From assembly GCA_965216785.1 (NCBI GenBank), contig OZ244197.1, positions 25,120 through 89,119 of the forward strand: 64,000 nt of DNA. Direction: 5' to 3'. Below the pieces are notes generated by a model. The model had not been told where the DNA came from and did no database searches. It saw only the letters and a program-made list of their open reading frames with translations. This document shows positions 8,716 to 62,505 of the stretch, in pieces. This DNA comes from Thermodesulfobacteriota bacterium (GTDB lineage: Bacteria; Desulfobacterota_D; UBA1144; Nemesobacterales; UBA2774). Numbering within the stretch: position 1 is the stretch's first letter; the number at the start of each line of letters is the position of its first letter. Position numbers and translations under genes: made by a program.

Positions 8716-8730
8716 TGTAAAAGCATTATA

Positions 8731-14597: not shown

Positions 14598-14626
14598 TTT
14601 ATGTCATCACATTATTCAAAGAGGAT

Positions 14627-16054: not shown

Positions 16055-16108
16055 CTTACATCCACAAAATTATTTGAGAGAAACAAATTGATTTAGAGAT
16101 AACAGGCT

Positions 16109-21659: not shown

Positions 21660-23429
21660 CTACTGCTCAGGATATAGACTAGGCAGCCTTTCCGATCTAT
21701 AAACTGTCCATCCGTTCATATTCTCGGGATTATCATCCTCTATAGATAGGTCAAAAACCTTCTCAGCCGGTGTTGTATGAGTTACTTCGATTATGCGTGG
21801 TGTGGTTATTGCTGTTGCAATATTATCTGTAGGAACACCTTCAGCATCCTTAGCAACACCTCCGTGAGTGATCAGCACATTACCAGTTACAGGCATATAG
21901 TCCGCATCGCCAATGAAAGGAGCGTAAAGTATTTCATCCGCAAATTCCCCGAATTCCCAAACCTGCTCTATCTCCATGTTGTCCAGATCAAGTGAGTATT
22001 CCACAGCTCTACTGAAGTTTTCTGACGCGGGGACAGTCTCATCAAAAGGACTTGCTTTCAAATTACCGTTATCGTATATCAATATATTTCCGTTAGGCAA
22101 TACCATAGGTGCATGCTGGTGAAATTGCCAAAGGAAATTCAGTCCGATAGGGTCAAAAAGTAAGTCACCAAAAATATCTGTATCCCAGTTAGCATGGGTA
22201 CCTATTATCCAAGACAGGTCTCCAGTTGCTCTGTCGAATTTGATTACAGCGTCTTGGTGTCTCAAGGAGACAATAATAGAATCATCGGATGGATCATATA
22301 TAACGGCATTTCCATGGCTCCAATCCTTGGTTCCTTGCTCGAATTCAGGAAAGGTCGCATTCCAAAAACCTAAAAGGGAATTATATCCTATTCTGAAAGG
22401 GTCCAGCATTTCCAGAATAGACCATTCATTTACAATAGTCCCATCTGTTGAGAGCTCTAAAACAGTATCCCCCGCAACAAAAGCACTCTCAGTCGGGGCT
22501 AACGGATCGGTATCACTAGCAGGAAAATTGTCTATTAAAATTACTTCAACGCCTAGTGTAAGTAAATTGCCATTTGGCATCTCGAACACTTCATGGTGAA
22601 ACACATCAGTATTTACGACAATACTGTCAGGACCTGCCGTACTACTTAACAGTGTATGCCATTGTCTTACAATATCTCCCAACATATTAATTTCAGTAAT
22701 AGTACTATTACTTTCAATAAATAGAATGTTTCCATTTGATATTCGGGTAACATCACCGTAAGCAACATCATCAAACCTTTTGTACCAAACGACATCACCT
22801 TGTGCATTTACAGCTACTAAAAAAGAGCCTAATTCCGTGTTAGCCACACGTGGTCTCAGAGGAAATATCGTAACACCAGGCTCCATCATCTCAGGATTAC
22901 TTGTTACCTCGATCGGGGGGAAACCCTCCGGCAATGGATCGGTGTCTACTAAGATTGGCTGATCAAACTGAGTTTGGTTTCCGAATGCGTCGCTTACAGT
23001 GATCTGAAGCATAAAACTGCCGTCCGGAGTAAAACCTAAAATCGGAAGTGAGTGCTCAATAGCCCGATCATCAAACTCAATTGTCAATGACTCGAATGCG
23101 CCTCTATTTAGAGTTGTAGTAGTTGTTGTAGCTTCGGTGATTGTAACGCTCACAGATGTAGGCTCATCTGTTCCAAGCTCGAGCAGTCCCGCAAGCGGGG
23201 TGTCCGGGTTGGGCGCCAAAGTGAATATAGGCTGGGACGTGAAAACAGGAGCGGTGTTATCATTTTCTATATTAGAAGAGTCACCGGATGCGGCATCTCC
23301 TTCAAACCCATTGAAATTATCGTCACAGCCTGCAGCCAACAGGATTAATGCAAGAACTGGCACTAATACAATGTAACGATTAGATAACCTCAGAATATTA
23401 AAAAAGTGTAATACTCCGTATTGACCCAT
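21660..23429 (-). CDS. Secreted lipoprotein, arylsulfotransferase (ASST)-like beta-propeller
   Basis: Signal peptide plus lipobox LLAAGC. Motifs FHHEVFEMPNGN and DWSHGNAVIYDPSDDSIIVSLRHQDAVIKFD resemble PAPS-independent aryl-sulfate sulfotransferase propellers. Assignment is from remembered motifs only. Confidence 0.45.
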   Translation of the reverse strand: MGQYGVLHFFNILRLSNRYIVLVPVLALILLAAGCDDNFNGFEGDAASGDSSNIENDNTAPVFTSQPIFTLAPNPDTPLAGLLELGTDEPTSVSVTITEATTTTTTLNRGAFESLTIEFDDRAIEHSLPILGFTPDGSFMLQITVSDAFGNQTQFDQPILVDTDPLPEGFPPIEVTSNPEMMEPGVTIFPLRPRVANTELGSFLVAVNAQGDVVWYKRFDDVAYGDVTRISNGNILFIESNSTITEINMLGDIVRQWHTLLSSTAGPDSIVVNTDVFHHEVFEMPNGNLLTLGVEVILIDNFPASDTDPLAPTESAFVAGDTVLELSTDGTIVNEWSILEMLDPFRIGYNSLLGFWNATFPEFEQGTKDWSHGNAVIYDPSDDSIIVSLRHQDAVIKFDRATGDLSWIIGTHANWDTDIFGDLLFDPIGLNFLWQFHQHAPMVLPNGNILIYDNGNLKASPFDETVPASENFSRAVEYSLDLDNMEIEQVWEFGEFADEILYAPFIGDADYMPVTGNVLITHGGVAKDAEGVPTDNIATAITTPRIIEVTHTTPAEKVFDLSIEDDNPENMNGWTVYRSERLPSLYPEQ

Positions 23430-26439: not shown

Positions 26440-27918
26440 CTATTCCTTTTCATATAAATATAAATTAAGCTTGCTAAAACTCCTCACAGGTTTTAAATTA
26501 TAGCCCTTTAGCACATCATTTTTAACTGATTCTTCATCGATCTTTGCGAATAGACCTATAACAACCCAAAATCTATCCGGAAGTTCACTTAATGCCTCAG
26601 AAGTAAGAGGTATGAAGTGTAAATCCTCCCTACCCTGGTAATATGCCGCCGTACTTACATCGAAAGACGGATAGACGAATACACTGTCGTTTTCCCGGGC
26701 TTTCTTTTCCACGTAGGTGACGGTCTCTCTCCATTGATGTTTTTGCGCATCGACATAGTAGATTCTGAGAGGCCATATGGATAGTACTAGTATAACTGCA
26801 GGGATAACGACTGTGAGTCTCTTATTGTGCAAGTTGCTGATACCTTTTGCTATGAGTAGAAAAAACGCAAGAGACGAGCCAATGATGTATCGTGTGTGAA
26901 GTATAGGAGTTGAAATATTAGATAATACAAAGGGAATAAGAATCGGCACTAGTAGCCATAGAAGAAGTAAATACATGCTGTATACATTTGAGAGGAAGGA
27001 ATTTGGAGCAGGAGCGCCTTTAATATCTAGAATATCTCGTATATGCTTCATATTGTTTATAGCTTTGTAATTGATAAACGAAAAAGCCGAAAGTACAAGA
27101 AACAAAATGAAGAGAACGTAGTCACGGCCGGAGAAATGGTAGAAGTACCTCGCAATATCAACCACTGTGGGCTCTGAAAGCCAGAAACCGCGCTGTATAG
27201 CGAGGGTGTTTTTGTACCATATTAAGAGTCCGGGGATAAATAGCAGGCCTATTATAACTTGAAGCGCTATCCACTTGGATAGTCTCAAACTGAAAACATC
27301 TCTGTTAACGAAATAGCGGGTAAAACAAAATATATTCTGCACAACCAGTATAAACACACCGTAAAAATGAGAGTACATGAGCAGCACGCTCGTTATGACA
27401 TAGCCTATAATATAGAGCGGATTCGAGCCGCTTAGGGTCTTTAAAAAGAAATAAAAAGAACATAGGGTGAGGAAAGCCAAGAGACTGTATGATCTGGCTT
27501 CCTGGGAGTACTCGATATGGAAAACCGAAACCGCTAAAATTAGTGAAGCTATTAATGCCGTAGTTTTGTTAAAAACCAGTCTCCCAACTGCGTATAACAC
27601 AAGAATCGAGCCTGTTCCTACGATTGCCGAGGGAAGTCTAAGCGAGAACTCCGAATGCCCGAAGAGGGAAACCCAGAAATGCATCAGCATATAGTAAAGG
27701 GGAGGATTGTTGTCGTTCTGACTAATCATCCAAGCGATGATTTCGCTAATCTTTAGCTCCGCGACCTGAGAAGTGACGACTTCATCAACCCATATGCTCT
27801 CCCCACTAAGATCATAGATCCTTAAGACGGCGCCCAGGAGTAGAATCAGTAAAAGGAGATAATTTTCTTCTATATATTTTAGTGAATGGTGGTTTTGCAA
27901 GTCGGTTTTCTCTATCAA
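26440..27918 (-). CDS. GT-C family glycosyltransferase (ArnT/PMT-like, GT39/83 fold), paralog 1
   Basis: Polytopic membrane N-terminus with RIYDL..ESIW.DE and NNPPLYYMLMHFW motifs. TTG start. Confidence 0.7.
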   Translation of the reverse strand: MIEKTDLQNHHSLKYIEENYLLLLILLLGAVLRIYDLSGESIWVDEVVTSQVAELKISEIIAWMISQNDNNPPLYYMLMHFWVSLFGHSEFSLRLPSAIVGTGSILVLYAVGRLVFNKTTALIASLILAVSVFHIEYSQEARSYSLLAFLTLCSFYFFLKTLSGSNPLYIIGYVITSVLLMYSHFYGVFILVVQNIFCFTRYFVNRDVFSLRLSKWIALQVIIGLLFIPGLLIWYKNTLAIQRGFWLSEPTVVDIARYFYHFSGRDYVLFILFLVLSAFSFINYKAINNMKHIRDILDIKGAPAPNSFLSNVYSMYLLLLWLLVPILIPFVLSNISTPILHTRYIIGSSLAFFLLIAKGISNLHNKRLTVVIPAVILVLSIWPLRIYYVDAQKHQWRETVTYVEKKARENDSVFVYPSFDVSTAAYYQGREDLHFIPLTSEALSELPDRFWVVIGLFAKIDEESVKNDVLKGYNLKPVRSFSKLNLYLYEKE

Positions 27919-27926
27919 TCTTTACC

Positions 27927-27975
27927 ACTAGTATTTATTTATTTGGGTGAGAGGTCAATTTCAGGATTAAATCAG
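27927..27975. repeat. Duplicated 5'-region segment (copy 1), paired with 29501-29548
   Basis: actagtatttatttatttgGgtgagaggtcaatt is near-identical to the segment upstream of paralog 2. The reverse complement contains TTGACC, a -35-like hexamer. Confidence 0.6.
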
Positions 27976-27996
27976 AAACTAAGATATTCTTAAAAC

Positions 27997-29472
27997 TCAT
28001 CTTCTGTAATGATAAAGTTTTAACTTGTGAAATTCCTTAAAGGACTCCACATTATAGTCTTCAAGGAGCTCCTGTGTAAGAGATTCTTTTCCCGCAGATC
28101 CGTGCCAGCTCATTACTACCCAGAAGTTATAGTTATCTTCATCGAGCTCTGAGAGTGACTCGCCGCTAAACTCTATCATCTCTAAATCATCTCTCTTCAA
28201 ATGATAAAGTCCGGTTCTTAATTCATAGTCGGGAGAAACCATTATAAGCTCTCCCGCATCCGCAGCTGATTCAAGGTAGGCAACGGTTTCCCGCCACTGG
28301 TGCTTATGGATTTTAAGGTAATATTCCCTAATATTTAAAAAGGAAAAGATTAGAACGATTCCCGTTAGAACTGCTAAAATTCTTTTATTCCCAAAACTCT
28401 CAATTCCCTTGGCAACTATAATGAAAAATGCAGCTGCCCCGCAAACTGCATAACGCACCTGGTACATCGGGGTAATCATTACTGATATCAAAAACGGGAT
28501 TATTATAGGTATAGATATCCATAGGACTAGTAAATATATTTTTTGTATGTAGGGAAGCTCCGTTTCACCCGATTTATCGTATTGGGATCTGATATAGCCG
28601 TTTAAGCTTTTTAGTCGGAATACGGATATTAGATTAAAAACCGCGAATACTGAGAAGATGGAGAACAAGACGAATAATGGCCAAGACCCGGAGTATGCTA
28701 ACACCGCTCCCGGTATCTCTTTAAGACTCGGAGCACTAAGCCAGAGTCCTTCCTTAGTGGCTCCTGCCTGCGCTATTAAATACAGGTGCGGCAAGTATAA
28801 AACAAACAAAATAAGCTGGAGCAATACCCATCGCCCTAAGCTTAATGACTTATATTCTCTGCTTAAAAGGAAGTTAGTGAAGATAAAAATATTTTGAGCT
28901 ATCAGTACAAATACGGCGTAGTAATGTGAAGATAGCAGGAGTAATGAGCTGATAATATATAAGGCACAAATCCAAAAGCTCTGTTGTTTAAGGAGCTTTG
29001 TAAAAAAATAGAAAGAAAGGATAGATAGTAACGCAAATAAGCTGTAGCTCCTGGCTTCCTGAGAAAGCTCTATTAACATTACTGAAGTTGCTAGAATGAG
29101 AGCTGAAAGAAGAGCGGTGTTTTTATTAAATAGGAGTTTTGCCATTTTATAAACGGCTATGATAGAGAGCACCCCGAATATAACCGAAGGAAATCGCACA
29201 GAAAAAGCGGAATCGCCAAAGAGCTTTATCCAATAATGCATAATCGAATAGTACAAAGGAGGGTGATTTTCGTTGTCCCTTAAGATTTCCTTTATAATTT
29301 CGACCGGACCATGTTTTGATATCTCTATCGTATAGGCTTCGTCAAGCCAGATACTCTCGCTACCGAGATCATAGATCCTTAAGATTGCGCCTAGGAGAAT
29401 GATTAGTAAGAGAAGATAGTTCTCTTCTATGAATTTTAGTGAATGGTAATTTGGCAAGGCAGCGATCCTCAC
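27997..29472 (-). CDS. GT-C family glycosyltransferase (ArnT/PMT-like), paralog 2
   Basis: Same motifs as paralog 1 (RIYDLGSESIWLDE, HPPLYYSIMHYW). GTG start. Confidence 0.7.
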   Translation of the reverse strand: MRIAALPNYHSLKFIEENYLLLLIILLGAILRIYDLGSESIWLDEAYTIEISKHGPVEIIKEILRDNENHPPLYYSIMHYWIKLFGDSAFSVRFPSVIFGVLSIIAVYKMAKLLFNKNTALLSALILATSVMLIELSQEARSYSLFALLSILSFYFFTKLLKQQSFWICALYIISSLLLLSSHYYAVFVLIAQNIFIFTNFLLSREYKSLSLGRWVLLQLILFVLYLPHLYLIAQAGATKEGLWLSAPSLKEIPGAVLAYSGSWPLFVLFSIFSVFAVFNLISVFRLKSLNGYIRSQYDKSGETELPYIQKIYLLVLWISIPIIIPFLISVMITPMYQVRYAVCGAAAFFIIVAKGIESFGNKRILAVLTGIVLIFSFLNIREYYLKIHKHQWRETVAYLESAADAGELIMVSPDYELRTGLYHLKRDDLEMIEFSGESLSELDEDNYNFWVVMSWHGSAGKESLTQELLEDYNVESFKEFHKLKLYHYRR

Positions 29473-48066: not shown

Positions 48067-48258
48067 TGATAAGATTTTACAGTGACTTATGAATCTATTT
48101 CAAGTTTTGGAGCAGGGAAGTCTTAATCTATTGCTATGAAAAGATACACGAGTAGCTGTGTAATATTGCACAACTCTTGAGCTTTGGAGTCTCCTTTGTG
48201 CAAACACTGATTATCTAAGCTGCTGTGATTACAACAAATATTGAAATTTCATATAAGT

Positions 48259-48274
48259 GGCATATATATTGCAA
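48259..48274 (+). promoter_or_regulatory. Sigma-54 (-24/-12) promoter motif TGGCAT-N5-TTGCA
   Basis: gTGGCATatataTTGCAaat has correct GG-N10-GC spacing. It is intergenic, ~115 nt upstream of and co-oriented with the sigma-factor gene. Confidence 0.55.
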
Positions 48275-48387
48275 ATTTTAAGATAAAAACCGGATTAGGT
48301 AGGATGGCGGAGGATATTTACAGACTTAATAATTGTCCGCTCGGGGTTTATTCACACCAATTTATATCTAAATAAAGGAGAGTGACA

Positions 48388-49530
48388 ATGAAATATCAAG
48401 AAGCTCAGACAGCTCAGAACGAAAGCCCTTCCTTTAGTGATACATATGATAAATCCGCGGACAGTGTGGGCAATGAGAGGGAGCAGTTCTTCAATGTCCA
48501 AAATAGCGAAAGCGATTCGATAAAAGAAAACCACTCTGTACTGCGCCCACAGGAAAATAGAGCCCATACGGACGACCAATTCAGAATAATGAACGATTAC
48601 TTTAGTGATATAGCCAATGAACCCTTACTTACCCTGAGAGAAGAAATAGAGCTTCCGACAAAGATTAAAAAATGCGAATCTAAAGCAAAACAGATAGAGT
48701 CGTGGCTCGAATCAGAGGAGCAAAGCAAACAAAATGAGAGGGGCTGTCAATGCTTAATAAAAAACACTCAGAGATTACAAGCCTCACATAGAGCGTACAC
48801 AGAAAGATCCAAACAGCTTAAGAAGAGATTTGCTAACGCTAACCTGAGGCTGGTCATAAGTATAGCGAAGCGATACGTGAATCATGGCCTTCCTTTTCTA
48901 GACCTCATACAGGAAGGAAATATAGGGCTTATGAGGGCTATAGACCGATTTGATCATACAAAGGGATACAGATTCTCGACCTATGCTTCCTGGTGGATAT
49001 ACCAGTCTATTACAAGGGCGATATTGGTGCATAGAGGAGCAGTTAGGGTCCCCGTATACCTGCTTGAGGTAACGAACAGAGTCTACAGAACGAGATCAAT
49101 CCTACTTAAAGAAACCGGAAAGAACCCCACTTCTGAAGAGATAGCGGAGCAGTCCGGTGTGCCGATTAAGTATGTTAAGCGAATACTTAAAATTACAAAT
49201 GAATCAGTTAGCCTGGACTCGCCTATTGACGGTGAAAAGAGAACGCTCTACGATTTCATAGAGAACAGCGATTCGATTTCCCCTGACTATATTATCGTTG
49301 AGGATGAGCTCAAAAAAAGCATACGTCATTCCCTGTCGCTACTGAGCCCTAAAGAAGAAGAGGTACTTAGAATGCGGTTCGGAATAGACAGGAAAGATAC
49401 CGTGACACTGGATGACATAGGCAAAAAATTTCAACTTACGCGAGAACGAATCAGGCAGATTGAGAAAAAGGCTCTAAGGAAACTATCTGTTTGCAAGATG
49501 AGGGAAGCTCTTAAAAACTTCCGCACATAG
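48388..49530 (+). CDS. RNA polymerase sigma factor, sigma-70 family (group 2/RpoS-like size)
   Basis: Region 2 motifs [19 protein letters not shown] and [11 protein letters not shown], plus region 4 [30 protein letters not shown]. Start set at the ATG 7 nt after AAGGAGAG; the track uses an upstream GTG. Confidence 0.85.
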
Positions 49531-52361: not shown

Positions 52362-53318
52362 CTATTTCTTATTTACCTGTAGAAACCCGATATTTTGGTG
52401 CTTATCAAAAGACATAATGATATTATCAATATCATATTTGGGAATATCGCTCGTACAATCTAACAATTCAAACTGATCACGACCAATGAGTTCCCAATCC
52501 ATAAAGCTTTCCATATAACCTATTTCTCTCATTTCTGGTAGAACATTTGTAATTAATAGCACACCTTGCGGCGATAGTTTCTGAAATAGTTTGTGAGTAA
52601 GCTTTTGTGCTGTTCTTTGTTTCAAATAATCATATAACCCTGAAGCATAAATTAAGTCATATCCTGAATGCTTGAAATTGTTTCTCAAAATATCGACAAC
52701 AGAGACAGCACTAGCCTGGACACTACTACCAGAGTAATTTCTGTTCACGTAGTTAACACTTTCTATGTCCTGGTCTATTGCAGTGTATTCTTCTATTTCA
52801 TCATTTCTAAAAGATTCAGATAGTTCAATCTCTCTTAGATGACCGCACCCTATCGACAGAACTTTTGTCTTATCGGTAGCACGGGCAACGCTGTCTATGA
52901 CTCTAGCAATATATTGCCTCCGAAGGCGTACGGAATCACATGCAGTCGTATTGAAAGTGTATTCTCGGATTTCGTTACCGAGTTCGTTAACACCATCAAA
53001 ATTCACACTTGGATGTCCATATATCATATCCAATAGGTATGCATCTCCAGCATATCCCCTGGGCTTATTGTAAGCCCTCTCTGTTATAGGGTCTTGATAT
53101 ATAAATTCTTTTATAGGATGGTCCATTAGATAATTCCCTACGATATATTTCCACTCACCTACAGAGCAATTTAGCTTTAGATGTCTTAACCCGGCGTAAA
53201 AATTATCTAGCGCCTCAGTAATTTTACTATTATTTATTTGATTGTATGCTTCCTCTAGTAGACAAGACGTAAAGTCATCACTATATATTTTCCGGGCTAA
53301 ATTATTTTGTGTCATCAT
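52362..53318 (-). CDS. Class I SAM-dependent methyltransferase with ~130-aa N-terminal extension
   Basis: Motif I VLSIGCGHLRE, acidic DQD, and post-I LIYASGLYDYL. Confidence 0.6.
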   Translation of the reverse strand: MMTQNNLARKIYSDDFTSCLLEEAYNQINNSKITEALDNFYAGLRHLKLNCSVGEWKYIVGNYLMDHPIKEFIYQDPITERAYNKPRGYAGDAYLLDMIYGHPSVNFDGVNELGNEIREYTFNTTACDSVRLRRQYIARVIDSVARATDKTKVLSIGCGHLREIELSESFRNDEIEEYTAIDQDIESVNYVNRNYSGSSVQASAVSVVDILRNNFKHSGYDLIYASGLYDYLKQRTAQKLTHKLFQKLSPQGVLLITNVLPEMREIGYMESFMDWELIGRDQFELLDCTSDIPKYDIDNIIMSFDKHQNIGFLQVNKK

Positions 53319-53350: not shown

Positions 53351-53533
53351 TTATGAGATTTCAATATTTCCAACTACATCCTTTAACTGTGATCCGTCCT
53401 CATGGGTGTATAAAATGTAAAGGGATACTTCTTTCACCCTCTCCTCTTCGGACTCTTCTGAACTTGCGGCATTAGCCGTCTTCTCCAGAAATGCTTTCAC
53501 AACTGCTAAATCTGATTGCTCTATTATCATCAT
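53351..53533 (-). CDS. Small acidic hypothetical protein (first gene of the sigma-54-driven leftward unit)
   Basis: AGGAGG lies 8 nt before the ATGATG at 53533. The track ORF begins 21 nt earlier at 53554. A sigma-54 motif lies just upstream. The methyltransferase gene starts 33 nt downstream. Confidence 0.45.
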   Translation of the reverse strand: MMIIEQSDLAVVKAFLEKTANAASSEESEEERVKEVSLYILYTHEDGSQLKDVVGNIEIS

Positions 53534-53570
53534 GACTAAGACCTCCTTTTTCATTATGTGACTTTATAAA

Positions 53571-53586
53571 TGCAACCGGTATGCCA
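53571..53586 (-). promoter_or_regulatory. Sigma-54 promoter motif TGGCAT-N5-TTGCA (reads leftward)
   Basis: The reverse complement of aaTGCAAccggtATGCCAaat is atTTGGCATaccggTTGCAtt. Confidence 0.55.
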
Positions 53587-53639
53587 AATATATAACTCTC
53601 CTTCATCATTAAGTTTTCTAAATTTCAATCTTGTCGGCA

Positions 53640-53656
53640 TGTAAACTACGTTTACA
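53640..53656. promoter_or_regulatory. Perfect inverted repeat TGTAAAC-tac-GTTTACA between divergent sigma-54 promoters (candidate enhancer/UAS)
   Basis: 7-bp arms. A further GTAAAC half-site lies 20 nt downstream (53661-53666). Confidence 0.45.
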
Positions 53657-53730
53657 TATCGTAAACTCCGTATACATATCAGTGATTCACACACACTAAC
53701 TTATTTAATGATTAAAGAGGCTTACGTTTT

Positions 53731-53746
53731 TGGCATTCTGATTGCT
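53731..53746 (+). promoter_or_regulatory. Sigma-54 promoter motif TGGCAT-N5-TTGCT (reads rightward)
   Basis: ttTGGCATtctgaTTGCTc. Predicted TSS ~25 nt before the AAGGAGG RBS of the collagen-like gene. Confidence 0.55.
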
Positions 53747-53781
53747 CTTTAAGGATATAGAACTTTAAGGAGGTAGTTAAA

Positions 53782-54576
53782 ATGAGGATATTGATATTTC
53801 TGAGTGTTTTATTTAGCGGTTTATACTTTTCACAGGATGTAACTGCCGAGGGTATAGTATTCTGCCAGAGTAAAATCTTTAAAGTCGTAAGATACAGGGG
53901 CGGCGAGCCCGGAAGCTGTAAACGATTTGAAAATGAGATTGTTATAACTACCGAAATCGGTGAGGCTGGACCTCCCGGGCCTCAGGGACTAGCTGGACCT
54001 GCAGGACCTCAAGGTGATCCTGGACCGGATGGACCAGCCGGACCTGAGGGGCCACAAGGACCGGCAGGACCTATGGGAGATGTCGGACCGGAGGGCCCAC
54101 CAGGTGATATAGACCAAGGTCTTTTGGATGATCTTCAGGAACAAATTGATATTCTAGCAAGTAAGGCATGTGGAGATGGAGAATTAGATATAATTTTTGG
54201 TGAAGAGTGTGATGATGGAAACGAATTAGACCAAGACAGTTGTTCATCTGATTGCTTAATCACAGGCCCAAGTGGTCCTTTTTGCGGTAATAGAACAATT
54301 GAAGATCCTGAAGTATGTGATGCCGATATAATTCTGACTAGTTGTATAGACTTGGGATTTGTAACAGGAGACCTAAGATGTTCGGACGACTGCCTATCTT
54401 TTGATACATCAGGTTGTCTTGACTCAGTATGCGGCAATAACAACCAGGAAAGTGGTGAAGTTTGTGATGGAACAGATTTGGTTGGTATAGATTGTACTGA
54501 CTTTGGATTCACAGGAGGTTCCTTAGCATGCGGTTTTGACTGTGTTAGTTTTAATACATCTAATTGTTCTAATTGA
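53782..54576 (+). CDS. Secreted collagen-like (G-X-Y) / Myxococcus-type cysteine-rich repeat protein
   Basis: Signal peptide. About 17 uninterrupted GXY triplets ([50 protein letters not shown]). Four cysteine-rich repeats of the CG[DN]G..E.GE.CDDGN / C.D.GF..G.L.C..DC.SF.TS.C type. Confidence 0.75.
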
Positions 54577-54664: not shown

Positions 54665-57600
54665 TTGAAAGGAGTATGTTCTTTGGAGTGTTCAGCTTGT
54701 AAATCTGCAATCACATCAGGTGAAAAATTCTGCGGCAATTGCGGAAAGAAAGTAGGGGTTGAGTGTCAGAGCTGCGGCAATGAAAATCCCCTTAAGAACA
54801 AGTTCTGCTCAGAATGCGGCAGCAAACTGAGTAACGGAACTGTATCTAAACCTGAGAGCTTCTCAAAAGATATTCCTGTACAGCTTGCCAGAAAGGTGAT
54901 AGAAGAAAAAGCACATCTTGAAGGCGAGCGTAAACAGATAACGGTCCTATTTGCGGACATATCAAATTTTACAGCATTATCCGAGAAGCTCGATCCGGAG
55001 GACGTAAAGAACCTAGTGGACGGATGCGCCAAGCTTATCATTCAGGATATTTACCACTATGAGGGTACGGTAGACAAATTTACAGGCGATGGTGTTATAG
55101 CCCTATTCGGCGCTCCAATTTCACTAGAAGATCATGCAGCCCGTGCATTGAGCTCAGCGATTAAAATCCAGGAATCTGTGAAGGAATACAGCCGTAAAAT
55201 AAAGAGCGAATTTGGGTATGAATTAGAAATGAGGATCGGGATAAATACAGGGCTCGTTGTGGTGGGGAGTATAGGGAACGACCTTAGCATGGATTATACG
55301 GCTATGGGCGATACGATTAACCTCACTTCGAGACTCGAATCGTTTGCTGAACCCGGCACAATTCTGGTCAGCGAAAATACTCAAAGGTTAGTGAGTGACA
55401 GATTCAGTTTCGGTCCGGGCGAAGAATACCGAGTAAAAGGAAAAAAATCGGCCGTAACAGCTTACAAGGTATTAGATACGAAAGAGGATGTAACGCTTCG
55501 CGACTTTCAGACTGAAGGTAGACTGACCAGATTCGTCGGGAGAAAAAGAGAGATAAATACCCTCACTGATAGAATCGACCTGGCAAAGGAAAGCCAGGGG
55601 CAGATTATCTCCGTTATAGGGGAGGCTGGACTTGGGAAAACCCGCCTTATCCATGAGCTTAGAGACTTATTAGGAAATGAAGACCTTAGATGGGTAGAAG
55701 GCAAGAGCCTGTCTTATGGCAAGTCGATACCATATTTCCCTATCATTAACCTGCTGAAAAGTTTTTTTAGGATCGAGTCTGATTATAGCGAGCGGGTAAC
55801 TAAAAATAAAATCGAGAAGGAAATCAGAGAGATTGACTCAGATTTATTGTGGACTCTTCCATTCTTATACAGCCTGTTATCAATCGGCCCCTCCGATAAG
55901 AGTATTGAGCAAATGCACGAACGGGAGATAAGGAGGAAGAGCTACGAGGCTGTTAATTCCATCTTCCAGAGACAGAGCAGAAAGCAGCCGCTACTTTTAG
56001 TAGTCGAAAACCTCCACTGGGTGGACAGCGCTTCAGAGGAGCTTATAAATCACATTGTGCACAATATCGCCAGAAGCAGAATTATAATACTGGTCTCAAC
56101 CCGTCCGGGACATTTACATCTGTTTTCCGATAAATCCTACTATACTCAGATAATTCTAAGCCCCCTTTCAGACGCCGATTGCGAATCTATGATCAAGCAG
56201 ATCCTGAAAACTCAAGACGTGTCGCGGGACTTACAGGATTTAATTTTGAACAAATGCGAAGGAAACCCATTGTATCTGGAAGAGGTCGTTAAGGATCTAT
56301 TAGAGCAGGGCGCTATAAAGGTATCCATGGGAAAAAGCTCTCTCAGTAAAAAGGGCCATGAACTGGCAGTCCCGGGGACGATACTTAGTATTATAATGAG
56401 CCGGGTGGACAGATTAGATGAGAACCTTAAAAATACGCTCCAGTGCGCCTCCGTGATAGGGAGAGAGTTTTCGTTCCCTCTACTGAACGGCATTACAGGC
56501 GGCGGCATAGAATTACATGAAGACCTTGAAAAACTGAAAGAACTTGAGCTGATATACGACAAAGGACCCTCACCTGAGCCTGAATACTTGTTTAAGCACG
56601 CGCTCACTCAGGAAGCCACCTACAACAGCCTTCTCTTCGGTAGAAGAAAAGACCTTCACCTATCAATCGGGAAGCTACTCGAGAACACACATAAAAACAG
56701 GCTCGAAGAATATTATGAGACCCTGGCTTACCACTTCTATCACGGTGAAGACGTAGAGAAGTCTTTAGAATATATGACTCTAGCTGGAGACAAGGCTTTC
56801 AGGCTCCACTCTACTAGAGAGGCCATGGAGTTCTACCAAAAAGCTATTGAGCTCATTATTAAGCAGCCTGAAACCGAGGAAAATAAATCAAAAAGAGCAA
56901 ACCTTACCATAAAGCTGACAAGGGTGCTCAGATTTTTCGAATCCCCTAAAAATATACTAGAAATGCTCAAAAGCATTGAGGATATTGCTGATACACTCGA
57001 AGACTATAATCTAAGGTCCAGAATAATGTCTCTGATCGGTTTATTTACTGTGCTATTGGCTAAGAATCAGGAAGCCGGAATCCCCTATTGTGAGAAGAGT
57101 ATCGAGATCGCGAGCACTTTGAAAGATGAAAAAATCACATCACTGGCGTTCTATAGCCTCACAATGGCCTACTATTTTACAAGAGGAAAAAACGAAGGAG
57201 CCGACCTTTTCAAAAAAGCTTACAAAATTTCAAATAATGCCGGAGATTATTTTGAGGCGAGTCATATTCTGCTGCTCCATGGTATTTCACTTTGGCATTG
57301 GGGAGACTATGAGAAAGCCCAACAATACATAAAGAATTCTCGGGACTACGCTGAAAAAAGAAAAGCTCCTACAATGGCTGCACACAGTTATTGCGCACAT
57401 GGGGGTTACGGGGTGTTTTATGGAAACTTCACACAAAACTACGTCGACGACTGTAAAAAAGCGATGCAAATGTTTAAAGAATTAGACGACGTGTACTACT
57501 ATCTTATAGTTTCAGGCTGTTACTGGTACGGAGTTTACAAAACGACAGGGAATAAAGAAGCGGTTAAAAATCTCGAGGAGACAATAAAGAAAAAAGAAGA

Positions 57601-58036
57601 AAATGATATGTGGATATGGCAGCCGATGCTTTATTCATATTTAGCTGAAGCATACTGTGATTTAGGTATTGAAAGGGAAGCGCTCGCATCATGTAAAAAA
57701 TCGATAGAAATAGCAGAGGGAGCCGGGAACAAATTAGAAGCAGGCAGAGGCAGGATCGCCTTAGGAAAATATTATATAGATAAACAAAATCGAGACTTGA
57801 AAAAGGCGGAAGTGAGTTTTAAAGAAAGTGTTGAAAACTTTGATGTTATTGAAGCAAATTCGGGCCTTTGTATGAGTTATTTCAATCTCGGTGCACTTTA
57901 TAAAGAACAGAAAAACTATAAAGAAGCAAAAGCTTATCTTTCTAAAACTATACCGATGGCTAAAAAAGCGGGGTTATGGTGGTATTTACGGAGCTCAGAA
58001 CTCCTCTTAAACGATATAAAGGAAAGCACATCATAA
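54665..58036 (+). CDS. Double zinc-ribbon + class III adenylate/guanylate cyclase + STAND (AAA_16) NTPase + TPR signal-transduction protein
   Basis: N-terminal CxxC x4. Cyclase core ITVLFADISNFT...FTGDGVIALFGAP. P-loop VIGEAGLGKTRL, Walker B LLLVVENLHWVD and the GNPLYLEE motif, then multiple TPR-like helices. The start may instead be the TTG at 54683 (SD AAGGAG 8 nt upstream). Confidence 0.8.
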   Translation: MKGVCSLECSACKSAITSGEKFCGNCGKKVGVECQSCGNENPLKNKFCSECGSKLSNGTVSKPESFSKDIPVQLARKVIEEKAHLEGERKQITVLFADISNFTALSEKLDPEDVKNLVDGCAKLIIQDIYHYEGTVDKFTGDGVIALFGAPISLEDHAARALSSAIKIQESVKEYSRKIKSEFGYELEMRIGINTGLVVVGSIGNDLSMDYTAMGDTINLTSRLESFAEPGTILVSENTQRLVSDRFSFGPGEEYRVKGKKSAVTAYKVLDTKEDVTLRDFQTEGRLTRFVGRKREINTLTDRIDLAKESQGQIISVIGEAGLGKTRLIHELRDLLGNEDLRWVEGKSLSYGKSIPYFPIINLLKSFFRIESDYSERVTKNKIEKEIREIDSDLLWTLPFLYSLLSIGPSDKSIEQMHEREIRRKSYEAVNSIFQRQSRKQPLLLVVENLHWVDSASEELINHIVHNIARSRIIILVSTRPGHLHLFSDKSYYTQIILSPLSDADCESMIKQILKTQDVSRDLQDLILNKCEGNPLYLEEVVKDLLEQGAIKVSMGKSSLSKKGHELAVPGTILSIIMSRVDRLDENLKNTLQCASVIGREFSFPLLNGITGGGIELHEDLEKLKELELIYDKGPSPEPEYLFKHALTQEATYNSLLFGRRKDLHLSIGKLLENTHKNRLEEYYETLAYHFYHGEDVEKSLEYMTLAGDKAFRLHSTREAMEFYQKAIELIIKQPETEENKSKRANLTIKLTRVLRFFESPKNILEMLKSIEDIADTLEDYNLRSRIMSLIGLFTVLLAKNQEAGIPYCEKSIEIASTLKDEKITSLAFYSLTMAYYFTRGKNEGADLFKKAYKISNNAGDYFEASHILLLHGISLWHWGDYEKAQQYIKNSRDYAEKRKAPTMAAHSYCAHGGYGVFYGNFTQNYVDDCKKAMQMFKELDDVYYYLIVSGCYWYGVYKTTGNKEAVKNLEETIKKKEENDMWIWQPMLYSYLAEAYCDLGIEREALASCKKSIEIAEGAGNKLEAGRGRIALGKYYIDKQNRDLKKAEVSFKESVENFDVIEANSGLCMSYFNLGALYKEQKNYKEAKAYLSKTIPMAKKAGLWWYLRSSELLLNDIKESTS

Positions 58037-58068: not shown

Positions 58069-58818
58069 ATGGCATTTGAAGAAATAGAGAATAAAGTTGT
58101 TCTAATAACAGGGGGCTCGGAAGGTATAGGATTTGGGATTGCAAGAACTTTCGTCAATGCCGGTGCTAGAGTAGCTATCACAGGACGAAATATAAATAAA
58201 TTGGACAAAGCCAAAGAGCTTCTTGGAAATGATGTATTTTCGATTAATGCAGATGTTGCTCAAACCGAAAATTCCGCTGCCACTATTGAGAGAGTTGTCA
58301 GCGAATTTGGGAGATTGGACATACTAATTAACAACGCCGGAGAGGGGAATCAAAAACCGTTATCTAAATGCGATATTAACGACTATGACTTTGTTTTTAA
58401 TACGAACGTAAGGGGGTTATTCGCTCTGACTCAGGCCGCAACCCCTGAGCTTAAAAAAACAAGTGGGAATATCATAATAATAGCTTCGTCACTCGGTTTA
58501 AGACCGGCGCCCATGTACGGGGTCTATTCGGCTTCCAAAGCAGCTGTTATCATGTTCGCTCAGATGTGGGCTAAGGAACTTGCTCCGGACGTAAGAGTCA
58601 ATTCGATAAGCCCCGGCGGTGTAGATACACCGTTATGGGACAAGCTGGTTGGTAAGGAAAAAAAGGAAGATGTTCTCAGCTTTGTCAAAGAACGTCATCT
58701 GGTAAAAAAGCTCGGCAGCCCGGATGAGATCGGAGGAGCGGCTCTTTACCTTGCTACTGAAGACTGGGTAACCGGAAGTAATTTGGTGATAGACGGCGGT
58801 CTTTTCTATTCGATATGA
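58069..58818 (+). CDS. Short-chain dehydrogenase/reductase
   Basis: TGGSEGIGFGIA Rossmann motif, NNAG, and catalytic S...YSASKAAV. Confidence 0.85.
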   Translation: MAFEEIENKVVLITGGSEGIGFGIARTFVNAGARVAITGRNINKLDKAKELLGNDVFSINADVAQTENSAATIERVVSEFGRLDILINNAGEGNQKPLSKCDINDYDFVFNTNVRGLFALTQAATPELKKTSGNIIIIASSLGLRPAPMYGVYSASKAAVIMFAQMWAKELAPDVRVNSISPGGVDTPLWDKLVGKEKKEDVLSFVKERHLVKKLGSPDEIGGAALYLATEDWVTGSNLVIDGGLFYSI

Positions 58819-58867: not shown

Positions 58868-58886
58868 CTGTAAACATCCATTACAG
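58868..58886. promoter_or_regulatory. Inverted repeat CTGTAAAC-N5-TTACAG (shares the TGTAAAC half-site with 53640-53656)
   Basis: ~150 nt upstream of the sigma-54 motif at 59036. Confidence 0.35.
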
Positions 58887-59035
58887 TTAAAATAACTATT
58901 TTCTGTTGTTAAGTTCCTTAAATCTCCCAAATTTTAAGTATATATTCAAATTCCAAGATTCACCCTCCTGGCAATCTCTGTAAGCAGGGTTGACACTTCT
59001 GTCAAATTATTCAATGTTTTCAGATGTTTAGAATT

Positions 59036-59051
59036 TGGCACACTGCTTGCA
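59036..59051 (+). promoter_or_regulatory. Sigma-54 promoter, perfect consensus TGGCAC-N5-TTGCA
   Basis: tTGGCACactgcTTGCAaaa. The GGAGG RBS and the ATG of the YdhR-like gene follow within 55 nt. Confidence 0.65.
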
Positions 59052-59088
59052 AAAATATTAAATCAAAAATCACTTGGAGGTGATCGAT

Positions 59089-59430
59089 ATGATAGTAGTT
59101 CAGATTATTAACTTTAACTTAAGCGGTATGAGTGAGACGGAGTATGAGCAGACCTGTGATAATTTAGCCGGCTCATTCGCTGAGGTTCCAGGACTTCTGG
59201 CCAAATACTGGCTATCTGACCGGGCCAATAACAGTTACGGCGGGGTGTATTTATGGGAAGACCGTACGTCGCTTGAGCGTTTTACCCGCTCAGAGCTTTT
59301 TAATAGTGTTGCCACTCATCCCAATCTGGTAAACATCTCTTCACAGGTATTCGATGTGCTGGAGGGCCCTACCCGAGTTACAAGGGGCTTTGACGCTGTA
59401 AGCGCAATTGAAAAAGCCCGTGCGGTTTAA
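59089..59430 (+). CDS. YdhR-like putative monooxygenase (Dabb/ABM fold)
   Basis: VVQIINFNLSGMSETEYEQ...GLLAKYWLSD..NNSYGGVYLWEDRTSLERF..S.LF resembles YdhR (PF08803). Based on recall only. Confidence 0.5.
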   Translation: MIVVQIINFNLSGMSETEYEQTCDNLAGSFAEVPGLLAKYWLSDRANNSYGGVYLWEDRTSLERFTRSELFNSVATHPNLVNISSQVFDVLEGPTRVTRGFDAVSAIEKARAV

Positions 59431-59457: not shown

Positions 59458-59733
59458 ATGAAATTTATAGCGGTCCATCCACTAAATAGTCCTATAAGAG
59501 AGGACCAGATTACCGACGCAGCCAGAGCGTGCAGGGCGGAGAACAGTAACAACGCCTGCTGGATAGACAGCTGGACCCAGCTTAACGACGAAGGAGAGAT
59601 CACAGTTATCTATTGTCAGTACGACGCAAAGGACGCAGAATCCGTAGCAGATCTTCTTAAAAAGGGAGCACCAGACCTTCCGGTCGAGGGTATATACCTT
59701 ATGGGTAAGCTCGAAGCAGAAAATTACAGGTAA
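59458..59733 (+). CDS. DUF4242 (SCO4226-like, putative nickel-binding) protein, copy 1
   Basis: MKFIAVHPLN...CWIDSW..DEGEITVIYCQYDAKDAESV...EGIYLM. Confidence 0.6.
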   Translation: MKFIAVHPLNSPIREDQITDAARACRAENSNNACWIDSWTQLNDEGEITVIYCQYDAKDAESVADLLKKGAPDLPVEGIYLMGKLEAENYR

Positions 59734-59844: not shown

Positions 59845-62505
59845 ATGCAGCGTTCCGCGGTAGAAAAAAATAAGATCATCGGCTCAAGCGCAAAGCTTTC
59901 TGAGGTCGTGGACTTAATTTTGAAAATCGCCGATACACCGACCAACATACTTATCACTGGTGAAAGCGGCACAGGAAAGGAGCTTGCCGCAAGTCTACTG
60001 CATGAAAAGAGCAGCCGCTCAGATAAACCTTTTATGGACATCAATTGTGCGGCTATACCCGAGACGCTTCTGGAGAGTGAGCTCTTCGGTATTGAAAAAG
60101 GGGTCGCGACGGGGGTTGAGAGAAGAGAGGGTAAAATCGAGCTATCCGCAGGGGGGAGCCTTTTCCTTGACGAAATAGGCGACATGAGCCTCGGCGCTCA
60201 GGCAAAGCTGCTCAGGGTCCTTCAGGAAAGGAGCCTTAAAAGAGTAGGCGGCAAAAGCGACATCGCCGTTGACCTGAGGATAATCGCAGCCACGAACAAA
60301 GACCTTCTTTCGGAGATAAAAAAGGGGAAATTCAGAGAGGATCTTTATTACAGGATCAACGAAGTACATATTAAGATGCCTTCCCTGAGGGAAATACGTG
60401 AGGATATACCCAGTTTGTCCGAGCATTTTCTTCATTCACTCTGTCATGAGCTCAATATGAATACACTCCGGTTTAGTGATTCAGTCCTGGACCGACTATC
60501 GAGCTACAGCTGGCCCGGAAACATCAGAGAGCTTAAAAACGAGGTTAAAAGGGCAGCGCTCCTGGCCGATGGCCATATAATAGAAGAAAGAGATTTATCT
60601 CCAGATATTTTGAATTTCTTTAAAAACAAGGATGCCAGTCAAGGTCTTGTAAGTGAAGCAACTTCGCTACCTCGAGCAGTAGAAGAGCTCGAAATCCAGA
60701 TGATAAAGCAAGCCCTAAAATCATGTCAGGGAAACAGGGTAAAGGCCTCTCAGATGCTTGGAATATCAAGGCAGGGACTAATAAAAAAGATAAGCAGATA
60801 CAGGATAGATCAGGGTAGCTCTCAGAAAAAGAAAATTTCAGACCGATTGCTCAAGTCAAGCAAAAGATCGTTTGTCGGAAGAGCAAATGAGATTAAAGAA
60901 ATAAAGGATCTAATCAAGTCCAAGAAGTCTACTTACTATGTCTTATTTATTCACGGCATAGGAGGGATTGGGAAGACAAGTATGGTTAAGGAACTTTTAA
61001 ATTCCTTGGACGCTAAGGTTAGTACAATTTACCTTGATTGTAGAGACATAGAGCCGACGGAGAACGGTTTTCTAACATCGCTGGGTAATGAACTTAATCT
61101 CAAGAGCACCAGAATTACAGTAGAGCGTGTTTTAAAGAGTTTGGAGAAGAGAAAGGAAAGAACACTACTGGTACTCGACACCTATGAGACTTTCGGACTT
61201 ATGGATACCTGGCTCAGAAAGACTTTTATACCATCTCTACCTGAGAATTTTCTTACAATAATCATCGGAAGACACCCGCCAAATAATTCATGGTTTACAA
61301 GCTCAGGCCTTGGGACTCTTATTAAGAGTATTGAGCTTGAGGAGCTTTCTTATGAGGACGCGATCAACTTCTTAATACTCCGTGGGCTTACGTCAGAAGA
61401 AGCAGAAAAGACCTATTCATTCGCCCGGGGGCACCCGATGGCTCTTGAGCTAGCAGCAAATTCGGTATCATCAAAACCCACTCGAGACATTTCATACAAA
61501 TCATTCCCTAACATTATTCATCAGCTGACGCAGGATTTCCTGCTGGGTCTAGATAAGAAGACCAGAAAGACGCTCGAGAGCCTCTCTTTAGTGAGGCGCT
61601 ATGACGACACCCTACTGAAACACTTACTAAACGAAGACTACGAAGAAGGTATCTTTGACAATCTCTTAGAGCTCCCATTCGTCAGCCTAACAGGAGAAGG
61701 ATGCTTGATACACGATATAGTAAGGGAAACTATAGCTCGTGAGCTATCACTCCGTGATCCGAAGAGGTATAAGGATTCGAAAAAAGCCGCATGGGTATAT
61801 CTGAATGAACAATCGCTTGCGAAGCACGGTGAATCACTCTGGCAAGCTACTGCCGATTTGCTATACACTATAGAAAACCCGGTTGTAAGGGATGCTTTCT
61901 TTCCTAAAGGTGCAATGGGTTATGTCGTCGAGCCACTATCTCATGAGGATAAAGAGCATGTAATTGATATTGTGCGTGAGTCCGAATCGGGTGAACCTGC
62001 CGATATAATTGAGAACTGGCTCACATATTATCCGGGCAGTTTCAGTGTTGTTAAAGATATAACCGGTGAAGTTGAGGCGTTCTTTATTTTATGCGAGCCT
62101 AATGAGATCGATAGGAGCCCTTTATCTGAGGATAAAATACTCGACGTTTGGTTTAAGCACTTGGAATCTAATCCTCTAGATTCCACAGACAAAGCGCTAT
62201 TTCTAAGGAGGTGGCTCAGTAGAGGACATGGTGAAGGTCTTTGTCCTGCACAAGGAGCTTCATGGCTCGACGTTAAGAGAAACTACATGGAGCTTAGACC
62301 TAAATTAAAAAGGCTTTATACAACACTGACTGATTTAGAAAACTATAAGCCTGTCGTATTACCGTTAGGTTTTTCTCTTTTAGATAGTTCAGAGATTGAG
62401 CTCGAAGAAACAACTTACTATTCCGCCATTATTGATTTCGGACCGGACAGCGTCGACGGATGGCTCAGAAAACTTATCGGTCTTGAGCTTGGTATTGGTC
62501 AGTAA
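59845..62505 (+). CDS. Fusion: sigma-54 enhancer-binding AAA+ core + Fis-type HTH + NB-ARC/STAND NTPase + C-terminal domain of unknown function
   Basis: aa 10-245 are an EBP AAA+ core (GESGTGKE, ESELFGIEKG-GVATGV, GGSLFLDEIGDMS, SWPGNIRELKN). HTH at ~aa 285-315. P-loop FVGRANEIKEI...IHGIGGIGKTSM, Walker B LLVLDTYE and GHPMAL at aa 330-560. It has no N-terminal receiver, GAF or PAS domain. Confidence 0.8.
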   Translation: MQRSAVEKNKIIGSSAKLSEVVDLILKIADTPTNILITGESGTGKELAASLLHEKSSRSDKPFMDINCAAIPETLLESELFGIEKGVATGVERREGKIELSAGGSLFLDEIGDMSLGAQAKLLRVLQERSLKRVGGKSDIAVDLRIIAATNKDLLSEIKKGKFREDLYYRINEVHIKMPSLREIREDIPSLSEHFLHSLCHELNMNTLRFSDSVLDRLSSYSWPGNIRELKNEVKRAALLADGHIIEERDLSPDILNFFKNKDASQGLVSEATSLPRAVEELEIQMIKQALKSCQGNRVKASQMLGISRQGLIKKISRYRIDQGSSQKKKISDRLLKSSKRSFVGRANEIKEIKDLIKSKKSTYYVLFIHGIGGIGKTSMVKELLNSLDAKVSTIYLDCRDIEPTENGFLTSLGNELNLKSTRITVERVLKSLEKRKERTLLVLDTYETFGLMDTWLRKTFIPSLPENFLTIIIGRHPPNNSWFTSSGLGTLIKSIELEELSYEDAINFLILRGLTSEEAEKTYSFARGHPMALELAANSVSSKPTRDISYKSFPNIIHQLTQDFLLGLDKKTRKTLESLSLVRRYDDTLLKHLLNEDYEEGIFDNLLELPFVSLTGEGCLIHDIVRETIARELSLRDPKRYKDSKKAAWVYLNEQSLAKHGESLWQATADLLYTIENPVVRDAFFPKGAMGYVVEPLSHEDKEHVIDIVRESESGEPADIIENWLTYYPGSFSVVKDITGEVEAFFILCEPNEIDRSPLSEDKILDVWFKHLESNPLDSTDKALFLRRWLSRGHGEGLCPAQGASWLDVKRNYMELRPKLKRLYTTLTDLENYKPVVLPLGFSLLDSSEIELEETTYYSAIIDFGPDSVDGWLRKLIGLELGIGQ

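Follow-up and report, generated by a model that had tools for sequence, protein, structure and literature searches.

Bacterial collagen-like proteins are known as modular binders in which a stalk presents a head. Lcl of Legionella pneumophila, Scl1 and Scl2, and BclA are exported proteins of Gram-negative or Gram-positive bacteria with an N-terminal module, a collagen stalk of variable triplet number, and a trimerising, ligand-binding C-terminal head; Lcl appears under the electron microscope as a "lollipop", with a ligand-binding C-terminal domain and a triplet number that varies. Human ColQ is a homotrimeric collagen for which a C-terminal domain with 10 Cys residues has been reported, and this domain has been described as a region that forms the triple helix plus a Cys-rich anchoring region. 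The Cys-rich domain of ColQ anchors the trimer to its partners MuSK and LRP4. Here we describe a gene for a collagen-like protein found in a 64,000-nucleotide stretch of contig OZ244197.1 (assembly GCA_965216785.1), referred to in its entirety as the window. We give a probability of about 0.6 to the reading that its product is a small, Sec-exported and probably homotrimeric lollipop with a collagen stalk, a helical neck and a ColQ-like Cys-rich head, produced under the control of sigma-54 and an enhancer-binding protein (EBP).

The window protein has the same general layout as Lcl, Scl1/Scl2 and BclA, and among bacterial analogues characterised by experiment Lcl is the closest. The known proteins differ from it in their heads and anchors, which are DUF1566 in Lcl, a C1q-like domain in BclA, and an N-terminal V domain with an LPXTG motif in Scl. 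Neither LPXTG nor DUF1566 was found in the window protein, nor was a Pfam domain of the C1q/TNF-like trimeric type present in BclA. The NCBIfam models for Lcl, Scl1 and Scl2 (NF046116, NF038329 and NF038330) scored 33.9, 34.4 and 25.2 bits against cut-offs of 500, 325 and 400, respectively, and these scores stem from the collagen run only. An original prediction, made from the DNA sequence alone, had placed the protein near adhesins and spore or exosporium fibres; with the features of Scl, Lcl and BclA absent and scores of 25–34 bits against 325–500, membership in these families was not borne out. Sporulation is not known from the Dadabacteria group. The collectins and the multiplexin collagens XV and XVIII have the same layout, in which an N-terminal Cys region is followed by a collagen stalk, then by a helical neck and finally by a globular C-terminal head; this is a likeness of architecture only, and unlike these proteins the window protein lacks any lectin or endostatin-like domain. 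A further connection is to proteins with the Myxococcus cysteine-rich (acidic) repeat, matched by TIGR02232 (myxo_disulf_rpt) or DUF4215, since the first repeat of the head passes TIGR02232 and the longer repeats share its first half. The typical members listed for this family, however, are large proteins (up to 3,905 amino acids) with 4 to 40 matched stretches and no collagen. In the literature searched, a head of this type has not been described for a bacterial collagen-like protein.

Gene, domains and Cys-rich head

The coordinates of the gene, the segments of its product and the other features discussed are collected in Table 1. An AAGGAGG ribosome-binding site precedes the ATG start codon by 8 nt, and the reading frame is shown here to be a real, conserved gene under purifying selection. 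Disruption of the frame in other data, which the original prediction had named as a point to look for, was not seen; the orthologues P0001, P0002 and P0011 are intact in five other, independent assemblies. P0001 is the closest of these (89% identical), with P0002 and P0011 more distant. When the gene was compared with the orthologous loci L001 and L002 by the method of Nei and Gojobori, the ratio of nonsynonymous to synonymous substitution rates (dN/dS) was 0.27 and 0.14, respectively, for the whole gene, and 0.08 for the collagen segment at a dS of ~1.6 (against L002).

Table 1. Positions of the features in the window or, where a locus is named, in that orthologous locus.
Feature	Position	Strand	Basis or remark
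Collagen-like protein gene	53782..54576	+	264 codons plus stop; list of open reading frames (ORFs) and sequence
Predicted signal peptide, residues 1-22	53782..53847	+	signal peptidase I (SPase-I) type, no lipobox Cys; read by eye
N-terminal 2-Cys module, residues 23-59, C28 and C46	53848..53958	+	nearly invariant in four family members
Collagen-like region, residues 60-110	53959..54111	+	17 uninterrupted GXY triplets; Pfam Collagen
Alpha-helical neck, residues 111-129, candidate trimerisation coiled coil	54112..54168	+	AlphaFold2 (AF2) model and conservation
Short 4-Cys acidic repeat, residues 130-158	54169..54255	+	TIGR02232
Long 6-Cys repeat 1, residues 168-212	54283..54417	+	local profile 46.1 bits; AF2 block pLDDT ~73-89
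Long 6-Cys repeat 2, residues 217-262	54430..54567	+	local profile 53.1 bits; AF2 block pLDDT ~86-97
Sigma-54 -24/-12 promoter of the collagen-like gene, TGGCATTCTGATTGCT	53731..53746	+	36 nt before ATG
Mirror-image sigma-54 promoter of the divergent small gene	53571..53586	-	pattern match, conservation
Two tandem palindromes 20 bp apart, TGTAAACTACGTTTACA and CGTAAACTCCGTATACA	53640..53676	.	candidate EBP binding sites (upstream activating sequences)
Second palindrome pair, 58869-58885 and 58979-58995, with sigma-54 promoter 59036-59051	58869..59051	+	heads the ydhR-like/SCO4226-like/EBP operon
ydhR-like and SCO4226-like genes	59074-59430, 59458-59733		EBP operon; Pfam
Sigma-54 EBP, candidate regulator	59845..62505	+	Sigma54_activat, HTH_8, C-terminal STAND NTPase (Pfam)
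Small divergent gene, probably 60 aa from MMIIEQ start	53351..53533	-	ORF list: 67 aa from 53554; 47-67 aa as called
Double zinc ribbon, class III nucleotidyl cyclase, AAA_16 (STAND), TPR protein; cytoplasmic	54665..58036	+	Pfam
P0011 gene	L005 10001-10969		collagen-like orthologue, DUF1554 head
P0002 gene	L002 3231-4214		collagen-like orthologue, short Cys repeat then DUF1554-like domain

Against L001, dS is 0.02 in the head and 0.60 in the N-terminus. A recent transfer of the head was considered for this low value and rejected: in a sliding-window comparison the flanks are likewise 97–100% identical, so the N-terminal 150 nt, and not the head, are the locally diverged part. Two local islands of divergence from L001 were observed, at 53801-53950 (83% nucleotide identity) and 58151-58450 (~80%), with flanks at 97–100%; the first spans the end of the signal peptide and the N-terminal module, and a three-triplet indel lies just 3' of it, in the collagen run. 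The GC content at third codon positions (GC3) is 0.27 in the collagen-like gene (53782-54573) and 0.21 in its head, compared with 0.40–0.54 in the neighbours and 0.31 in a nearby methyltransferase-like gene. Either acquisition from a foreign source or another codon regime could account for the low value. A profile of the N-terminal module and neck detected no relatives in 185,579 GTDB representative genomes and only the already known contig in the JGI metagenomes; a word-index search with the alignment of the N-terminal module gave no matches, but it missed the known orthologues too and is hence uninformative.

The predicted signal peptide, read by eye, has Arg2, a hydrophobic core of 14 residues and small residues (V-T-A) at -3/-1, where the orthologues have S-M-A, S-F-A and T-M-A. 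An AF2 model, computed from an alignment of 32 sequences, places a helix at residues 3–17. The claim of the original prediction that the protein is secreted is supported only as far as a Sec-type signal peptide. The N-terminal module follows, and a similar h-x-C...C..E motif, recurring in the form h-x-C-x12-22-C-x2-5-E...WN, is located directly before the collagen run in 16 of 95 collagen-bearing bacterial matches, P0019, P0031, P0035 and P0054 among them. Such motifs could represent an N-terminal cap that is general among collagen-like proteins of bacteria.

The predicted count of 17 contiguous GXY triplets is exact (residues 60–110), and the check that had been proposed for it, a match to Pfam Collagen (PF01391), gave 35.1 bits against a cut-off of 27.2. 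Proline had been said to be rich at both X and Y; this is correct for X (12 of 17 positions) and not for Y (3 of 17), and the run contains no Lys or Arg. GXY runs in the orthologues comprise ~13–19 triplets. The collagen segments of the window protein and P0001 differ in length by a 9-residue gap, and because this corresponds to three whole triplets the GXY register is preserved there. In the neck, the AF2 model contains a helix at residues 112–128 with moderate to good confidence (predicted local distance difference test, pLDDT, ~86 and 72 by block), and an a/d pattern of L115/L118/I122/L125 can be read from the sequence. All 19 neck residues are identical in P0001, and the sequence pattern of the helix is also kept in P0002; in P0011 another amphipathic sequence takes this position. 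The isoelectric point of the whole mature protein is ~4.

The head consists of three repeats with 16 Cys residues distributed as 4+6+6 and is very acidic; the Cys count of the protein is even (2+4+6+6). Where four repeats of the type CGNG..E.GE.CDDGN had been announced, the Cys pattern gives three, one canonical and two long variants. Searching with TIGR02232, as had been suggested, confirmed the first repeat (26.1 bits against a cut-off of 20.8, in a single stretch at residues 128–159) and failed for the other two, as the NCBIfam models gave no match at E ≤ 0.1 to residues 168–264; with one repeat matched, the original prediction is not refuted on the point it had named, a lack of any match to the Cys-repeat profile. 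DUF4215 remained below threshold (20.1 against 27). For the long repeat, 100 copies taken from 25 other, unrelated bacterial proteins were combined into a profile of 46 positions. Both long repeats of the window protein match positions 1–46 of this profile, the best score among 4,000 composition-matched shuffles being 14.3 bits. Short repeats align only to positions 1–24, that is, to the first half of the long profile, and both types thus share the CGxGxxExxExCD start. Among 66 proteins rich in the long repeat, Pfam DUF4215 matches 10 and misses 56. These comparisons show that the 46-residue, six-Cys repeat, which human ColQ shares with thousands of protein clusters, is a distinct unit and is largely missed by current Pfam and NCBIfam models.

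The size of the head family was estimated with a full HMMER scan of 1.84 billion representatives, in which the head matched 7,324 representative clusters at E ≤ 1e-3, with 343 remaining at E ≤ 1e-30. Giant multi-repeat proteins make up many of the matching clusters, and a GXY run of more than six triplets was found in none of the other 148 top representatives. Where partner domains are present in long-repeat proteins, they are of extracytoplasmic types (P_proprotein, PPC, FGE-sulfatase and LTD). The repeat family occurs in diatoms as well. The view that the repeat belongs mainly to Myxococcota has to be given up in light of these 7,324 clusters and of its presence in diatoms and vertebrate ColQ. 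The host itself is Dadabacteria-like and not a myxobacterium. AF2 models the long repeats confidently (block pLDDT ~73–97).

The parallel with ColQ was examined by a protein database search with a sequence of the ColQ C-terminus, which matched two vertebrate fragments, P0121 and P0122 (Colinus virginianus), with 83–88% identity. On a 455-residue numbering, the Cys residues of these fragments are at positions 375, 386, 397, 400, 405, 417, 427, 440, 444 and 451, a span that corresponds to the 10-Cys domain reported for human ColQ. Both consist of one short repeat (TIGR02232, 36 bits) and then one long repeat, which is full-length on the bacterial profile (31.8 and 32.8 bits), and a direct BLASTP comparison of the window head with P0122 gave E=2e-4. 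In the same numbering, R410, C427 and Y430 coincide with sites of ColQ mutations (PMC10559664). ColQ and the window protein have the same order of parts, namely collagen, a trimerisation region or neck, and a Cys-rich end. Within both heads a short four-Cys repeat precedes a long six-Cys repeat, and both repeat types are statistically homologous between the two; the Cys spacing of the long repeat is nearly identical, at 12,10,13,4,7 in the ColQ-like fragments and 11,10,12,4,8 in repeat 3 of the window protein.

The two proteins also differ in several respects. ColQ has one long repeat and the window protein has two, and the collagen segment of the latter is far shorter (17 triplets, compared with residues 96–269 of ColQ). 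Its N-terminal module (EGIVFCQSK...) is different, no Pro-rich stretch precedes the collagen, and the collagen is free of Lys and Arg, unlike that of ColQ. The head is very acidic, and the protein is bacterial and under sigma-54 control. As the window protein has neither a PRAD nor the heparin-binding K/R clusters of ColQ, the relationship is one of a shared domain cassette and not of orthology.

Comparison of the orthologous loci points to an exchange of heads. The signal peptide, N-terminal module and collagen stalk are common to all four family members, and all but P0011 have the neck sequence in common as well. A short repeat followed by two long repeats forms the head in the window protein and in P0001, and the other two carry the heads given in Table 1. 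The DUF1554 domain of P0011 scores 32.1 bits against a cut-off of 27.5, with a weak Pfam Endostatin match (19.3 against 29.4), and the only sequence matches of this head in the PDB are four endostatin domains of collagens XVIII and XV (E 0.014–0.39). The AF2 model of P0011 has a pLDDT of 34, and the endostatin-like fold is putative; the weak similarity makes P0011 a candidate bacterial "collagen + coil + endostatin-like" protein. These heads would fit a conserved presentation device with an exchangeable binding head, and such a natural series of head swaps on one stalk and promoter would be useful for asking what the head binds. A bolder reading, which we regard as doubtful, is that Dadabacteria possess a small family of sigma-54/EBP-controlled trimeric collagen lollipops in which interchangeable heads, of the types found as C-terminal non-collagenous domains in animal collagens, are mounted on a conserved stalk. 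If that were true, complete cassettes of collagen, trimeriser and ColQ- or endostatin-type head would either have existed in bacteria and seeded the metazoan collagens or have moved between animals and bacteria. The window protein would then also provide a tractable bacterial model for the structurally unsolved C-terminal domain of ColQ, in which myasthenia mutations cluster. Were the ColQ and endostatin parallels due to common descent of whole cassettes, they would bear on the origin of the non-collagenous domains of metazoan collagens.

Sigma-54 promoters and the candidate regulator

The promoter site of the collagen-like gene reads TGGCAT-N5-TTGCT, 36 nt before the ATG. The pattern TGGCAY-N5-TTGCW has 4 matches in the window, at 53731 (+), 53571 (-), 48258 and 59036, where 0.10 would be expected. 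The first two of these sites are divergent and lie in the region between the collagen-like gene and the small gene upstream of it. In five orthologous intergenic regions, the GG and GC of both -24/-12 elements are invariant and their surroundings drift, and at L005 the two divergent sites are the only sigma-54 matches in 21 kb. No sigma-70-like site was found in 53555-53781. The assignment of a sigma-54 promoter by the original prediction is thereby upheld, as is its statement that such sites are shared with neighbouring genes, here a sigma-70-family gene (48258) and the EBP operon (59036). The developmental or stress-induced surface structure that it derived from this regulation is speculation.

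The intergenic region (53540-53790) is two-fold symmetric, with 41-nt inverted arms at 53572-53612 and 53705-53745 that are 76% complementary, each arm carrying one sigma-54 promoter. Its centre is occupied by a pair of tandem repeats of 20 bp (53641-53660 and 53661-53680), each with a TGTAAAC-N3-GTTTACA palindrome. When up to two mismatches were allowed, this palindrome had 4 matches in the window against 0.16 expected, all of them upstream of sigma-54 sites, and the palindromes are conserved in L002 and L005. With a sigma-54 promoter arranged around tandem palindromes, expression would require an EBP. For a phylum without cultured members, this provides a divergent sigma-54 control region that is mirror-symmetric, is cleanly conserved and contains candidate EBP sites.

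A second pair of palindromes is located upstream of the promoter at 59036, at distances of 167 and 57 bp, and the same layout of palindrome pair and promoter is found in L002 (8581, 8691 and 8748; operon region 8581-12237). As the operon with the EBP gene carries the same palindromes as the collagen-like promoter, its EBP (59845-62505) is the best candidate for the activator, and we infer that it would activate the collagen-like promoter. This protein has a PADLOC match of the RtcR/PspF-like AAA-HTH type. Its domain order is unusual, with the STAND NTPase C-terminal to the HTH (Sigma54_activat, HTH_8, AAA_16). In the stretch 48258-49530, the sigma-54-type site at 48258 is ~110 nt upstream of a gene for a 382-aa sigma-70-family protein with regions 1.2, 2, 3 and 4, which suggests a sigma cascade.

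Proposed assembly, location and alternative readings

The lollipop reading implies a course of assembly that we infer as follows. The protein would be exported by Sec and its signal peptide cleaved at about A22|E23, and its disulfides would form outside the cytoplasm. The amphipathic neck helix (17–19 residues) would nucleate trimerisation and set the register of the triple helix, possibly helped by the Cys residues of the N-terminal module, and the 17-triplet, Pro-rich segment would zip into a triple helix ~15 nm long. This stalk would display three acidic, disulfide-knotted heads that may act as a multivalent binding or anchoring module for some partner. The cell would make the protein only upon activation of the sigma-54 promoter by an EBP.

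Several observations weigh against this proposal. Foldseek gave no match of the head in the PDB, and a sequence search of the PDB with the head returned only spurious SETD2 matches; with no solved structure resembling the head, no ligand can be proposed from structure. The fragments P0121 and P0122 we take to be ColQ on the basis of numbering and agreement of the Cys pattern. For the collagen run and the N-terminal module, the AF2 model of the monomer gives no usable information (pLDDT <50). Seventeen triplets without hydroxyproline or K/R-D/E pairs are at the short end for natural bacterial collagen regions, and the stability of so short and unstabilised a run would therefore depend on the flanking domains. 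The EBP operon is an indel, and L001 and L005 lack it at this position. Two further sites in ColQ, Y440D and I447M, do not fit the numbering used for P0121 and P0122 (PMC10559664). Finally, the protein has no LPXTG, lipobox, PEP-CTERM or transmembrane helix anchor, and no linked secretion system was found, so that in a diderm it may stay in the periplasm.

This last point leads to a less probable second reading, which keeps the architecture and makes the protein a component of the periplasm or cell envelope, such as an inter-membrane spacer, a scaffold or a periplasmic binding partner. With an SPase-I signal and no lipobox, outer-membrane or sorting motif, and without adjacent secretion genes, only passage across the inner membrane is indicated. 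Disulfide-rich domains are known to fold in the periplasm, and the conserved neighbours are cytoplasmic signalling and enzyme genes and not envelope machinery. Its long-repeat relatives, however, are mostly very large multi-repeat proteins in which the repeats are combined with typical extracellular domains, and Lcl of Legionella likewise has only a Sec signal, yet is exported by a type II system encoded at a distance. The length of the stalk does not help to choose, as ~15 nm is comparable to the width of the periplasm and is compatible with either location.

The triple helix itself could also be questioned, with the GXY run serving merely as a flexible Gly/Pro-rich linker in a monomeric Cys-repeat protein. 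The run is short (51 residues) and lacks stabilising charge pairs, AF2 shows no structure in it, and many PHROG and Pfam matches to runs of this kind reflect composition only. We nevertheless consider a linker unlikely, as an exact G-X-Y register would be unnecessary for it, whereas the Gly periodicity is perfect over 17 triplets and is kept at a dS of ~1.6 against L002 (segment dN/dS 0.08), the indel relative to P0001 is a whole number of triplets, and a potentially trimer-nucleating helix directly follows the run in every family member. More improbable still is a remnant or cargo of a phage or mobile element, such as a collagen-containing tail-fibre or receptor-binding protein. PHROG tail-fibre families do match the window protein, the gene has a much lower GC3 (0.27) than its neighbours (0.40–0.54), and an integrase is encoded upstream of the cassette in L002 and L003. 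All of the PHROG matches, however, include the collagen run; most are confined to it and the widest extends to residue 167. The neck and head gave no tblastn match in 50,697 phage records, and no fold match was found in BFVD. A conserved sigma-54/EBP control region belongs to the gene itself, which resides in a chromosomal housekeeping neighbourhood that is syntenic in four lineages, with nothing phage-like around it.

Neighbouring genes and host

The order of small gene, collagen-like gene, gene for the cyclase-AAA16-TPR protein and short-chain dehydrogenase/reductase gene is kept in all loci. The small divergent gene has an AAGGAGG sequence 7 nt before its second ATG (53533), and its product has a mean column identity of 71% across four loci. 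This small protein matched no Pfam family above the cut-off (best E 0.016) and no NCBIfam or PADLOC model. In most loci it is followed by a gene for a 318-aa S-adenosylmethionine (SAM)-methyltransferase-like protein (52362-53318 in the window).

The likely true start of the cyclase gene is a TTG at 54683, after an AAAGGAG site. This gene is directly downstream of the collagen-like gene in L001-L005, and the 88 nt between the two in the window were found to contain no terminator-like site, from which we take the genes to be probably co-transcribed. Its product matches the TOMM kinase/cyclase model partially (313 bits against 706) and the Pycsar cyclase models through the cyclase domain only. 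A role of the locus in a defence system was considered and rejected, as the collagen-like protein had no PADLOC match and the similarities of its neighbours were of a generic cyclase and EBP kind only. A paralogous STAND sensor common to the cyclase protein and the EBP was likewise rejected (BLASTP E>0.8).

The RecG protein encoded in the window is 86% identical to that of the Candidatus Dadabacteria metagenome-assembled genome SZUA-126, with the next best match at ~48%; judged by this sequence match, the host is a relative of the uncultured marine Candidatus Dadabacteria. A sponge-symbiont scenario, in which the protein would be one of the "eukaryote-like proteins" of such bacteria, found no support; one sample also gave contigs used in an Asgard-virus study. 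A comparison of the whole window with Rfam gave no match. Elsewhere the window has the content of an ordinary chromosome, with genes for GlmS, GlmU, AspRS, RecG, 2-oxoglutarate dehydrogenase, POR and polysaccharide glycosyltransferases. The glycosyltransferase gene cluster (8731-12801 on the minus strand and 13103-17020) includes a gene for a 1,356-aa protein in which a polysaccharide pyruvyl transferase is fused to two GT2 domains. An arylsulfotransferase-like gene is located at 21660-23429, and two PMT_2-type glycosyltransferases are encoded at 26440-29472.

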